Shown here: positions 59,585 to 63,302 of the stretch, in pieces
How the letters are laid out: each line of letters begins with the position of its first letter
How positions within the stretch are numbered: the stretch's first letter is position 1
Assembly: GCA_012112355.1 (NCBI GenBank)
Contig: GCA_012112355.1_3028.1
DNA from: a phage
Direction: 5' to 3' (one strand)
Length of the DNA stretch: 64,000 bases
Translations under genes and position numbers: made by a program
The notes under the pieces: generated by a model
Told to the model about the DNA's origin: nothing
Databases searched by the model: none
What the model saw: the letters and a program-made list of their open reading frames with translations, nothing else

Positions 59585-60010
59585 TTATTCCTTAAAATGT
59601 GCTTTCAACATCTGATACAAGGACCATGCCTGTTCATTATTTTCAATAGTAACTTTCATGACAGGAAATTCTGTGAAATCTTCTATTTGTTCTTGCTCTT
59701 TCTCTTCCTGCTCTTGCTCTTCGGCTGCCTGGTATGGATTTTCCACTTCATTAAAGAACTCAGCTTCGCTCGCTGAAAGCCAGATAAAATCTTCATCCAA
59801 AATATCTTTACCAGAAGATAACGCCAATTTTCCACTAGATGTCACAAGTTTAGTAGGACGACCAAGATAGTCAATATCTGTAACTCTAAAAGGTTCCATA
59901 CCTAAACGTCGTGCATAAATTCCGTTTTCAGTATGATATTTAATAAATTTTTCTTGAGCTTGTTTATTTTTAAATTGATACCATTTATTAACTTCAAATT
60001 TAATAGCCAT
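59585..60010 (-). CDS. hypothetical protein
   Basis: 141 aa with acidic Glu/Gln-rich segment. Confidence 0.55.
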
Positions 60011-60225
60011 TAATAAATTTCCTTCCAGTAAGTTGTTCCATCTTCAGTAATTTCACGAAATACACCATAAATTGGTTGTTTATCACCGACTTTCTCATAC
60101 ACATAAACCGAAGTCAAGTGAGTAAACTTAACGGTATGTTCCTTTTGAACCACTACCAAATCTGGATCAAATAATACATCTTCAAATTCGTCATTAGTGC
60201 AATTCTGAACAATTTTACGTTTCAT
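60010..60225 (-). CDS. hypothetical protein
   Basis: 71-aa ORF. Confidence 0.5.
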
Positions 60226-60238
60226 TACAATTTCCTCA

Positions 60239-60508
60239 TTAATTAAACAGTGGAGCGATACGTTTCAGAAGAGTAGCAGCACCTTTGGCGAATTTTACAT
60301 CATGAAAAACAGTTTCTTCTTCCGTTACAACACGAGCTTTAAAGTTTTCACAATCCCAATTTTTGCGAACAATCTTCAAAAGCTGCAGTAAATCTTTACA
60401 TTCAGCAATATCAATAACACATCCACGAGAATCTTCCATTATCGCACGATAACCATAAGCCATACCGTAATCGTTGAAAGATTGCTCGATGATAATTAAA
60501 TTTTCCAT
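60239..60508 (-). CDS. hypothetical protein
   Basis: Track ORF starts MENKM; start at second ATG. Confidence 0.55.
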   Translation of the reverse strand: MENLIIIEQSFNDYGMAYGYRAIMEDSRGCVIDIAECKDLLQLLKIVRKNWDCENFKARVVTEEETVFHDVKFAKGAATLLKRIAPLFN

Positions 60509-60532
60509 TTTATTCTCCAAGTTGTTTTCTGT

Positions 60533-60590
60533 ATCAGTAGTTGATATTGATATAGTACCATAATCAACTACTGATGTATATAGTTTTATG
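60533..60590 (-). promoter_or_regulatory. early promoter cassette with perfect 13-bp inverted repeat enclosing the -10 (PeSL-like)
   Basis: ATCAGTAGTTGAT..17 nt incl. TACTAT..ATCAACTACTGAT. Confidence 0.55.
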
Positions 60591-60615
60591 AAAAAATTTT
60601 AAACTTTATGCAAAT

Positions 60616-61035
60616 TTATGCTAAAGCTGCTTCGCACCATTTTTTAATTTGGAATTCAGGAACTACCATGAACTGGCCTGCAAAAACAATATTGTAGAGC
60701 TTGACACCATCTTCTACCCAACGGTCCGAAATAAAACCAGCGACTTGATTCGTTGTCCATGGAGTTCCATCTGTTGCTGCCGCAATTGTGAATTTATGGT
60801 CTTTTACAACTAAAACTGAAGAACAAAGTTTCCATTTAAATGCGCTTTCTTCTGGCTCAATGAACTGACTTGAGACATAACCAATGTTACCATCAGCGTC
60901 ACGAACTTTAACCTCGTTACGACCAAAAACTGGATCACTTACAGAAAGAACTTCAACCAGCTTTCCTGCAACTTTAGAACGAGAAGCAACGGATACATAT
61001 ACGTAATCACCAGTAGAGAGATTTACAATATTCAT
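60616..61035 (-). CDS. hypothetical protein, member 1 of tandem paralog triplet
   Basis: 139 aa; C-terminal motif DRWVEDGVKLYNIVFAGQFMVVPE. Confidence 0.6.
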   Translation of the reverse strand: MNIVNLSTGDYVYVSVASRSKVAGKLVEVLSVSDPVFGRNEVKVRDADGNIGYVSSQFIEPEESAFKWKLCSSVLVVKDHKFTIAAATDGTPWTTNQVAGFISDRWVEDGVKLYNIVFAGQFMVVPEFQIKKWCEAALA

Positions 61036-61044
61036 AATAATTCC

Positions 61045-61521
61045 TTAAGCTTTACGAGGAGAAGCATAACGAGTGATTTCAGATTCTTCAACAACCCGGA
61101 AGTCACCTAAGAATACGATATTGTATAGCTTTTTACCGTCTTCAATCCATTGGTCTGTGATGAAGCCACACATCCTATCAGTTTTACTTGGACCAGCGAA
61201 ATCATCAATATAATCGAATTCTTCATCAGTTACAAATTCAACGCCTTTACACAACGCCCATTTAAATTGTGCATTAGACTCAGTGGATTCAACTTCTTCA
61301 ACAGAAGTAAAATGAGAGCTAACACGAGTTTCCAGAAATTTAGGACTTACGTAAGCGTACTGAGTTTCAGTTTTTCCAGAACTAGGAATGATTCGAACTT
61401 TAACTTCTTTAACACGACCAGTACCATTAGTACGAAGTCCTACCACTTCAACTAGACGACCTGCAGCTTTAGAACGAGATGCAGATGATACACGCTTAAT
61501 TTCACCAATATTAATAATCAT
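61045..61521 (-). CDS. hypothetical protein, member 2 of tandem paralog triplet
   Basis: 158 aa; shares N-terminal SASRSK.AG.LVEV and C-terminal DQWIEDGKKLYNIVF motifs. Confidence 0.6.
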   Translation of the reverse strand: MIINIGEIKRVSSASRSKAAGRLVEVVGLRTNGTGRVKEVKVRIIPSSGKTETQYAYVSPKFLETRVSSHFTSVEEVESTESNAQFKWALCKGVEFVTDEEFDYIDDFAGPSKTDRMCGFITDQWIEDGKKLYNIVFLGDFRVVEESEITRYASPRKA

Positions 61522-61559
61522 AGTTATCTCTCACTTGTTAAAAAGATTTTATACTCCAC

Positions 61560-61596
61560 GGAACCATTATACTCTGGTCCCAAGAGTTTGTAAACT
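61560..61596 (-). promoter_or_regulatory. T4-type early promoter
   Basis: GTTTAC (overlapping upstream stop) ..TATAAT. Confidence 0.7.
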
Positions 61597-62032
61597 AGCT
61601 TACACGAACATTAATCACTGCGCTGCGAGGAACTACAGAGTACTCTCCAGCATGAACTACGTTCAGAAGTTCAACACCATCTTCAATCCACTGATCAGTC
61701 ACCCATCCACCCACAGGATTCGCGAATGGACGACGAATATAAACTGCCTTACACAGCAGATCAGTTGGATCTTCAGGTTTTTCAATTTCTGTCAATAGAC
61801 TAAAATCTTTTTCATAAATAATAAGCGGTGATACCATTCCATAATAGTTTCTAATTTCAATATACATCATACCGATAAGAATTCCGCTATTAACACTAAT
61901 AACAGTAAAAGGATATCCGCCAGTTAAACCAAGAAGTTCACAAAACTTATTATGAGCTGTATTAGACAGTACCGAAAAATTCTTAATTTCATCAAATTTT
62001 TTCAATTGATAAACAGCATTATTTTTAATCAT
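61595..62032 (-). CDS. hypothetical protein, member 3 of tandem paralog triplet
   Basis: 145 aa; C-terminal DQWIEDGVELLNVVHAGEYSVVPR. Confidence 0.6.
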   Translation of the reverse strand: MIKNNAVYQLKKFDEIKNFSVLSNTAHNKFCELLGLTGGYPFTVISVNSGILIGMMYIEIRNYYGMVSPLIIYEKDFSLLTEIEKPEDPTDLLCKAVYIRRPFANPVGGWVTDQWIEDGVELLNVVHAGEYSVVPRSAVINVRVS

Positions 62033-62042
62033 AATTTTCTCT

Positions 62043-62555
62043 TTAATCTAAGGTAATAAAGCCTTTTAATTCGGCATGGGATTTACGGAACATTACTTGG
62101 TGCCCGCCAATGATAACTTGATCATCTGGCACTTCATAAATCGCAATGTACATTCCACGTTCTTTTAAGTCTTCACGCTCTTCTCGAGTGAACCATCTCA
62201 TCATATCATATTCGCTAGAGAAAGCAAAATGATATAATGCAATAAACCACAATGGAATATAATTTTCAATTCGTGAATAATCTTTATTCCATTTAGTTTT
62301 AATAACATCATTAGCATTTTCAACTAATAACTTATCATCGTGTGGAATAGGAATACTTTCATGACTTTCATAATTATCGCTATGATGATGAAATGATGAT
62401 GAATTAATACCACAAAATTTTAACCAAGTTCGAGTTTTCATAGAATCAAATCCACGATAAGGAGTCGATTGGACGCATAACTCTTGCCTAATTTTCATTA
62501 TACCACTATCATCATTTAGCGCATTAAATGATGATTCAACACGATAAATTTTCAT
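62043..62555 (-). CDS. hypothetical protein
   Basis: 170-aa ORF with early promoter upstream. Confidence 0.55.
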   Translation of the reverse strand: MKIYRVESSFNALNDDSGIMKIRQELCVQSTPYRGFDSMKTRTWLKFCGINSSSFHHHSDNYESHESIPIPHDDKLLVENANDVIKTKWNKDYSRIENYIPLWFIALYHFAFSSEYDMMRWFTREEREDLKERGMYIAIYEVPDDQVIIGGHQVMFRKSHAELKGFITLD

Positions 62556-62577
62556 TTTATTATCCTCAGTAGCTATG

Positions 62578-62613
62578 GTGTTATAGTACCATAACTAACC
62601 GAGGAAGTAAACA
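62578..62613 (-). promoter_or_regulatory. T4-type early promoter cassette
   Basis: GTTTAC..TACTAT then GAGGATAATAAAATG. Confidence 0.65.
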
Positions 62614-62618
62614 ACTTT

Positions 62619-63302
62619 TTATCGTTTTGTTGGAAGAGACAGAGGATCGCATTCTTCCTCTGATGGAGCGTCTTCAAGACCCATAGCATAGCGCAAAGCA
62701 TACTTCATCATCAGGATGTCTTTCGCACAGTCATGAATGGAATCATGCGCAACGAATCCATTTAAAGTTCCCTTTGGAAGAGGACACGTGGTCATATCAC
62801 GAACAAGTAGAAGTGCTTCAATTCTAGTACGAATGTCGCGTTGATTCCAGAATTTACATGGTTCTAACTTAAATGTGTCAAGCTCATTCTCAGAAACGCC
62901 GTTAAGACGTTGAATATCGCGAATGAGATCGACTAAAATTGGAAAATCAAACGACATTCCACGGCACCAGCCTTGAGATTTCCAAGGATCGATATTATGC
63001 GCATTGATGTAATCATTAAATTTTGCAATACCATCGATAGTGCTTACATCTTCATCGGATGGTGCAATATTTTTTCTAGCTTCAGGAGATTGATTCTTCC
63101 ACCATTCAATAGTGCTTTTAGTAAAAAGACGATGTCCTTTTTGGCTTTTTAAATCAAATTTGATTTTAATGCCACGTGAAACTAATTCATCAAATGTTTC
63201 AACAACTTCCGGGTTAGGGTCAAAAGCAATTACAGCCAAATCAATAACAGCTGCTTTTTCACCGCTTCCCATTGTTTCAAAATCTATAATAAAATCAAAC
63301 AT
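62619..63302 (-). CDS. dexA: exonuclease A (DEDD-type 3'-5' exonuclease)
   Basis: 227 aa; N-terminal IIDFET acidic motif. Confidence 0.85.
   Translation of the reverse strand: MFDFIIDFETMGSGEKAAVIDLAVIAFDPNPEVVETFDELVSRGIKIKFDLKSQKGHRLFTKSTIEWWKNQSPEARKNIAPSDEDVSTIDGIAKFNDYINAHNIDPWKSQGWCRGMSFDFPILVDLIRDIQRLNGVSENELDTFKLEPCKFWNQRDIRTRIEALLLVRDMTTCPLPKGTLNGFVAHDSIHDCAKDILMMKYALRYAMGLEDAPSEEECDPLSLPTKR

Follow-up and report, generated by a model that had tools for sequence, protein, structure and literature searches.

The closest described systems are MotB and MotB.1 of bacteriophage T4, which have a conserved C-terminal domain in common and carry different N-terminal domains; a duplication of one of the two into the other has been proposed, and several phages possess more than one copy (Patterson-West et al. 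2021, PMC7827196). According to Table S6 of that work, two MotB proteins and one MotB.1 occur in phages such as RB51, Sf24 and JS09, and RB69 has four members. T4 MotB exhibits non-specific, nanomolar DNA binding and co-purifies with H-NS and StpA (PMC6070864, PMC7827196); it alters the H-NS footprint, is toxic on over-production and raises burst size two-fold (PMC6070864). The N-terminal domain of MotB.1 is an LSm-like barrel common to GoF and Frd.2 (Kim et al. 2025, PMC12152347), and a full-text literature search for 'motB.1' returned nothing beyond PMC7827196 and PMC12152347. The locus considered here is a tandem array of three small genes in a 64,000-nucleotide stretch of phage DNA (contig GCA_012112355.1_3028.1 of assembly GCA_012112355.1), hereafter the window. 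All three are minus-strand open reading frames (ORFs), of 139, 158 and 145 amino acids (aa), whose coordinates agree exactly with those of a preliminary description of the same DNA:

60616-61035, minus: gene assigned as a second MotB copy ('MotB-like'), 139 aa (PF17613 72.1 bits; PHROG 1671 173 bits)
61045-61521, minus: gene assigned as the MotB ortholog, 158 aa (PF17613 147 bits; PHROG 1671 230 bits)
61595-62032, minus: gene assigned as the full-length MotB.1 ortholog, 145 aa (PF17613 32.7 bits; PHROG 2333 229 bits)

This trio very probably represents the three-member form of the MotB family (PF17613), arranged as two early gene pairs between dexA/motB.2 and cef, evolving under purifying selection and acting through a common C-terminal barrel that would serve as an interaction module. 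The family, its shared domain, the duplication and the three-gene form are already known from Pfam, PHROGs, RefSeq product names and the 2021 paper. Beyond these, the locus contributes a correction of T4 motB.1, a question about the fold of the shared domain and a set of natural chimeras. Across bases 60200-62700, the window shares 99.7% identity with Escherichia phage FriedrichZschokke (Bas41) and 95-98% with JLBYU24, RB3, RB27 and GiZh, and the phage is classified on this similarity as a Tequatrovirus of the Bas41/RB3 type. Synteny of the MotB locus is shared with T4, RB3, GiZh, Sf25, Manna and Aplg8.

Family membership of the three genes

The paralogy of the trio is carried by BLASTP comparisons with compositional adjustment, in which the 139- and 158-aa proteins match with E=1e-29 (40% identity end to end), the 158- and 145-aa proteins with E=8e-13, and the 139- and 145-aa proteins with E=2e-11 (17 of 32 residues identical within the C-terminal block). 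All three proteins exceed the curated gathering threshold (25 bits) of Pfam PF17613 'motB' ('Modifier of transcription'). The match spans profile positions 1-158 of 162 in the 158-aa protein and covers the C-terminal block only, residues 104-139, in the 145-aa protein. The 139- and 158-aa proteins belong to phrog_1671 ('MotB-like transcriptional regulator'), and the 145-aa protein belongs to phrog_2333 with a secondary match to 1671. Two features proposed in the preliminary description, a C-terminal block shared by all three proteins and an N-terminal VS.ASRSK.AG.LVEV motif in the first two, are both visible in the three-way alignment, and the block is further borne out by the BLASTP and Pfam scores. 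Its core, G-[FW]-[IV]-[ST]-D-[QR]-W-[IV]-E-D-G-x-x-L-[YL]-N-[IV]-V, is found in each protein, and the motif V-S-x-x-S-R-S-K-x-A-G-x-L-V-E-V reads VSVASRSKVAGKLVEV in the 139-aa protein and VSSASRSKAAGRLVEV in the 158-aa protein.

The probability that the shared block reflects composition or chance is negligible. No observation was found in favour of such an origin, and against it stand the composition-adjusted E values, the scores of all three proteins above the Pfam threshold and an alignment of 21 diverse C-terminal domains of the family with ten invariant columns, including D, W, E, G, L, N, V and G. Nor are these single-copy conserved genes of known function, the family being multi-copy, though published. 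A profile of the C-terminal domain searched against 1.84 billion representative sequences retrieved 38 clusters, approximately 28 of which are small phage-type proteins, and no relative with known function. The remaining, weaker matches are large repetitive proteins aligned over stretches of only ~25 residues (E = 1e-8 to 1e-4) and are probably spurious. Judged by these matches, the MotB family is a narrow one.

The 145-aa protein is classified as a full-length MotB.1 ortholog. It has a different head from the one that defines MotB proper (Category 1 of Patterson-West et al. 2021: a KOW/SH3-like domain with the SRSK motif, joined to the C-terminal domain) and falls in the MotB.1 branch, combining an LSm-like head with a MotB-type tail and being encoded between motB.2 and motB. 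Its N-terminal LSm/SH3-like domain consists of a helix followed by a bent beta-sheet, and its MotB-family C-terminal domain occupies residues 88-145 (61598-61771). RB3 annotates the homolog as 'dexA.-2; motB.1', and re-sequenced T4 encodes a 143-aa MotB.1 with which the protein shares 80% identity. Like T4 MotB.1 (PHROG 2333; Category 2 of Patterson-West et al. 2021), it shares the place between motB.2 and motB, the LSm-like head and the MotB-type tail; unlike the window gene, which is intact, the T4 reference entry NP_049627 (119 aa) has one extra G and lacks the tail. The head also belongs to the LSm-like structural group of GoF and Frd.2 (Kim et al. 2025), but these two proteins do not have the MotB-type C-terminal domain, and the kinship is limited to the head. 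In the window, goF lies ~1.6 kb downstream of the MotB.1 gene.

The discrepancy in T4 was located by comparing T4 NC_000866.4 7291-7650 (L001:1792-2151) with window positions 61595-61720. The T4 reference (NC_000866.4 / AF158101.6) reads GATTGGAAG instead of GATTGAAG within motB.1, and this extra G cuts the protein to 119 aa (...WVTDQWIGRWR*), with loss of the core that is conserved in the C-terminal domain. The extra base is missing from thirteen further records, all T4 or near-identical, and these encode 143 aa (KJ477684-6, MT984581, HM137666, OL964735/45, MZ375356, OZ209023/57, OZ035787, RB55 and RB59); the 143-aa form of MotB.1 was found on 256 contigs and the 119-aa form on 2. From these records, the real T4 MotB.1 is taken to be 143 aa long and the 119-aa reference to be a mis-annotation. 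A programmed +1 frameshift at the extra G was considered and rejected, as the other listed T4 records simply do not have the base. Kim et al. 2025 synthesised motB.1 from NC_000866.4 and report a 13.8-kDa monomer (PMC12152347), and their plasmid and AlphaFold work therefore probably used truncated MotB.1. This matters to those who study T4 early genes, since the truncated protein appears to have been used for both gene synthesis and structure prediction. A separate remnant occurs in the metagenomic protein P0279 (43 aa), which joins the first 13 residues of MotB.2 to the last ~30 of MotB.1 (MKIYRVESSFSIL|DYEDGVELLNVVHAGDFSVVPRSAVVAILN). Its sequence marks what is read as a deletion joining motB.2 and motB.1, and the 29-aa RB69 peptide mentioned by Patterson-West et al. 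2021 may be a comparable remnant.

The 158-aa protein is identified as the MotB ortholog because it matches the whole Pfam profile, occupies the position of T4 motB and keeps the T4 promoter and leader. Its gene lies between motB.1 and cef behind a promoter that overlaps the end of motB.1, with order, promoter and 5' leader as in T4, and the closest record names the product 'modifier of transcription MotB'. The question raised in the preliminary description, whether one of the three genes corresponds to T4 MotB, is answered by this protein on the grounds of Pfam, PHROG and synteny. It comprises a basic KOW/SH3-like head with the SRSKAAG motif, an acidic linker and a C-terminal domain at residues 86-158 (61048-61266), a two-domain layout shared with T4 MotB. 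The likeness has its limits: identity to T4 MotB is 48% for the 158-aa protein and ~37% for the 139-aa protein, the window copies are acidic (isoelectric points (pI) 6.0 and 5.4, respectively) whereas T4 MotB has a pI of 9.2, and T4 has one MotB copy whereas the window has two.

The 139-aa protein is assigned as this second MotB copy, missing in T4. It carries the KOW/SH3-like head with the SRSK motif as well as the C-terminal domain (residues 66-139; 60619-60840), and so has the two-domain layout of MotB, although the acidic linker is absent and the head is non-basic. Its sequence matches the 'MotB-like transcriptional regulator' of RB68 and PP01 at every residue (100% identity), and Aplg8 annotates its homolog as 'similar to motB and RB32ORF010c; RB69ORF010c'. 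Compared with RB69ORF010c and the RB68 and PP01 'MotB-like protein', it is the same gene at the same place downstream of motB, with nothing notable that differs. In a tblastn search, 208 of 774 phage records with a MotB-family hit (~27%) carried an ortholog with at least 80% identity, always as a second site within the record; the other 566 contained only MotB proper, ~37% identical to the 139-aa protein. Copy number thus varies among T4-like genomes, a comparison that the preliminary description had called for.

The absence of this gene from T4 and from ~73% of the phage records with a MotB hit, together with its loss of the basic N-terminal charge and of the acidic linker, would be compatible with a redundant, decaying duplicate of motB that has no function of its own. 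Such decay is very improbable, however, given that the ratio of non-synonymous to synonymous substitution rates (dN/dS) is ~0.05, that the ORF is intact at every locus examined, that orthologs with at least 80% identity extend to Mosigvirus-type phages among the 208 records, and that the gene has a good Shine-Dalgarno sequence of its own and is coupled to motB, starting 9 nt past the motB stop. The purifying selection already largely refutes the decaying-duplicate explanation.

Domain folds and proposed mechanism

Structural information on the trio comes from AlphaFold2 models built with family alignments. The models of the 139-aa protein (predicted local distance difference test (pLDDT) 89.4, predicted template modelling score (pTM) 0.79) and of the 145-aa protein (pLDDT 85.4; helix then strands at residues 1-83, C-terminal domain at 96-141) are all-beta and two-domain. 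In both models, a three-residue helix separates the final two strands of each domain, the pattern of an SH3-like barrel, and no helix lies between strands 3 and 4. This predicted topology suggests an SH3/Tudor-like barrel for the shared C-terminal domain in place of the published OB-fold, in which case the fold of the domain may have been mis-assigned in the literature. The structure searches used the whole two-domain models. Significant matches in BFVD were confined to family members and a few T4-like phage proteins with KOW annotation, and sequence searches of the PDB with the C-terminal-domain and full-length profiles gave nothing below E = 0.5. Tandem SH3-like 'royal family' and KOW modules (Spt5 KOW6-7, 53BP1 tandem Tudor, Kin17 tandem SH3-like) resemble the models at 7-20% identity, a likeness of fold only, with no evidence of common function.

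An OB-fold (cold-shock-like) DNA-binding domain, through which all three paralogs would bind DNA or RNA, is the less probable assignment, though one to be taken seriously. HHpred matches to the eIF5A C-terminal OB domains 1BKB and 2EIF speak for it (PMC7827196), and the five-strand all-beta composition fits either fold. The models lack the helix between strands 3 and 4 and instead place a three-residue helix before the last strand, and the C-terminal domain, in which D, W, E, G, L and N are invariant, has a neutral to acidic charge, all of which argue against a nucleic-acid-binding OB-fold.

Under the SH3/Tudor-like assignment, a division of labour between the two domains can be proposed from net charge and fold resemblance. 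Every subgroup of MotB proper has a basic KOW-like head (+5 to +7); in the 139-type copy the net charge of the head is ~-1, and for the shared C-terminal domain it lies between ~0 and -4. The three proteins have in common a C-terminal beta-barrel of ~57-75 residues, joined to N-terminal heads that differ, KOW/SH3-like in MotB and the second copy and LSm-like in MotB.1. Nucleic-acid binding would be supplied by the basic KOW-like head of MotB, and the conserved neutral or acidic barrel would provide a common interaction or oligomerisation module, enabling the paralogs to bring different heads to the same target during take-over of the host nucleoid. The array itself would evolve by gene duplication, by replacement of whole alleles and by unequal crossover inside the conserved block, with purifying selection acting on it.

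Several points weigh against this overall explanation. The roles of head and barrel are drawn from net charge and fold resemblance only, and all functional statements derive from T4 MotB, which is only 48% identical to the window MotB and much more basic (pI 9.2 vs 6.0). Furthermore, deletion of T4 motB.1 had no phenotype (PMC12152347), and the promoter-like site upstream of motB.2, described below, falls under the scan threshold in the window.

A more specific and rather unlikely version of the mechanism may also be considered, in which the C-terminal domain is an SH3/Tudor-like docking or hetero-oligomerisation module, binding for example to H-NS/StpA filaments or to other family members, and the family comprises adaptors that present basic KOW-like, non-basic KOW-like and LSm-like heads to one host target. 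If so, the functions of the single basic MotB of T4 would be split between the copies in two-copy phages, and the published negative results for T4 MotB.1 made from the synthetic gene would have come from a protein without the module.

Selection and recombination at the array

Selection on the trio and its neighbours was estimated as pairwise, gene-wide dN/dS by the Nei-Gojobori method, comparing the window with six to seven other phages. The medians were:

139-aa copy: 0.05
motB: 0.27
motB.1: 0.27
motB.2: 0.30
goF: 0.23
cef: 0.03
dexA: 0.02

The highest value for any pair did not exceed 0.39, and among the seven phages in the comparison the amino-acid identity of the 139-aa copy was 99% or higher. 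By this measure, the genes are less constrained than dexA, their enzymatic neighbour, yet show no gene-wide positive selection. Window and T4 MotB are 48% identical and window and Aplg8 MotB.1 57% identical, in both cases with saturated dS; the divergent alleles would therefore be old lineages that have been exchanged as cassettes between conserved flanks.

As the preliminary description noted, the trio forms a tandem array of paralogs in a plastic region, one that is early and non-essential. The description attributed the divergence of the copies to host-driven diversifying selection, a claim that the gene-wide pairwise ratios of 0.05, 0.27 and 0.27, well below 1, do not support. An arms-race locus, in which host-driven positive selection keeps the paralogs diverse, for instance to evade or inhibit host defence or nucleoid proteins, would be in line with the plasticity of the region (in T4 the 139-aa gene is missing and the 93-aa ORF is internally deleted), with a divergence of up to 52% among MotB alleles of phages that share 85-95% identity in the flanks, and with dN/dS values of motB, motB.1 and motB.2 that are about ten-fold above those of dexA or cef. 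Such a locus is nevertheless improbable, as gene-wide dN/dS lies between 0.05 and 0.32 in every usable pair, the 139-aa copy is nearly invariant, the divergent alleles have saturated dS (1.4-1.5) and thus resemble old recombined lineages rather than fast-evolving ones, and none of the PADLOC defence models matched any of the five proteins of the region at E <= 0.1.

Variation at the array is better described as mosaic, combining whole-allele replacement with chimeras between copies. The chimera P0034 is of the 158-type up to the DQWVEDG core and of the 139-type beyond it, P0036 switches at the FKW that starts the C-terminal domain, and in P0104 a T4-type head is followed by a 139-type tail. 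On the contig of P0036, a single MotB gene is present, located between a MotB.1-like gene and cef. Distant family members combine a KOW-type head with a MotB.1-type tail, a form of domain shuffling. These natural chimeras point to the conserved block as a hot spot of recombination, by which copy number is altered.

T4 motB itself was considered as a deletion fusion of the two window copies, given that in blastn its 5' part matched the 158-aa gene and its 3' end the 139-aa gene. This origin was rejected since identity in 20-codon bins reveals no switch, the 3' end giving 0.55 vs 0.58 at the nucleotide level, and the 3' blastn match arises because conserved intergenic DNA carries the extension.

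Transcription units and neighbouring genes

The trio is flanked by dexA and the motB.2 homolog on one side and by a 93-aa ORF, cef and goF on the other, with the following additional features:

59585-60010, minus: goF
60010-60225, minus: cef
60239-60520, minus: 93-aa ORF (phrog_3720; no Pfam family)
60533-60575, minus: predicted hairpin beyond the 3' end of the array, close behind the 139-aa gene (-22.3 kcal/mol by RNA folding, z = -5.5)
61566-61595, minus: T4-type early promoter GTTTAC-N18-TATAAT (11/12 in a sigma-70 scan)
62043-62555, minus: motB.2 homolog, 170 aa (PHROG 1106; homologous to T4 motB.2)
62563-62605, minus: predicted hairpin enclosing the -10 of the candidate promoter (RNA fold -24.4 kcal/mol, z = -5.1)
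62583-62612, minus: candidate early promoter GTTTAC(62612-62607)-N18-TACTAT(62588-62583), -10 extended by TG (scan score 8/12, under the threshold)
62619-63302, minus: dexA

The array is best described as two pairs, in which motB.2 and motB.1 follow a weak promoter-like site and motB and the motB-like gene follow a canonical early promoter. The latter promoter begins with a G that is the final base of the TAG stop of the 145-aa ORF. The exact GTTTAC-N18-TATAAT pattern occurs three times in the 64 kb, against 0.11 expected, and this copy is identical in T4; GiZh and wV7 carry a promoter annotation at the corresponding position. By position it is assigned to both motB and the 139-aa gene, for which no promoter of its own was found. 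According to the preliminary description, both the 61045 and 61595 ORFs have their own early promoter overlapping the upstream stop codon. This holds for the 61045 ORF (motB) and fails for the 61595 ORF, directly upstream of which the promoter scan detected no canonical early promoter.

The 145-aa ORF starts 10 nt past the stop of the 170-aa motB.2 homolog, with which it forms a pair as the second gene. The candidate promoter lies one gene further up, starting 6 nt after the dexA stop, in a region that is 99% conserved in T4, RB3, Sf25 and Manna; its -10 is TATTAT in RB3, Sf25 and Manna and TACTAT in T4 and the window. The 3' arm of the hairpin at 62605-62563 pairs with the Shine-Dalgarno GAGGA of the 170-aa ORF. 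Transcripts that read through from dexA would therefore have this ribosome site sequestered, and those started internally would not. The arrangement resembles the one described for T4 gene e.

Downstream of the array, the hairpin at 60533-60575 has a perfect 13-bp outer stem, none of 200 shuffled sequences folded as well, and its sequence is kept in T4 immediately 3' of motB. No U-run follows this hairpin, and the 13-mer TTATGGTACTATA in its loop recurs in the dexA-motB.2 element. The motB promoter itself sits inside a further predicted hairpin (61553-61587, minus; -21.5 kcal/mol, z = -2.8) with TATAAT in the loop and a CUUUUU run ~10 nt past it, a structure at which motB.1 transcripts may be weakly terminated or processed.

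The 170-aa motB.2 homolog is not a paralog of the trio: a PF17613 search of this protein gave no match, and Pfam PF26820 Phage_T4_Y00F matches the homolog in L005. It is as divergent among phages as the MotB genes (median amino-acid identity 67%). Several records label motB.2 homologs 'transcriptional regulator', yet the window protein shows no homology to the MotB family, and the label looks like annotation carry-over.

The 93-aa ORF between cef and the 139-aa gene is intact and highly conserved in Bas41, RB3, Sf25, Manna and REP1, with a dN/dS of 0.05. T4 (L001:983-1154) keeps only its first 7 and last ~17 codons, out of frame, and has no counterpart of window positions 60301-60498, which lie inside this ORF.

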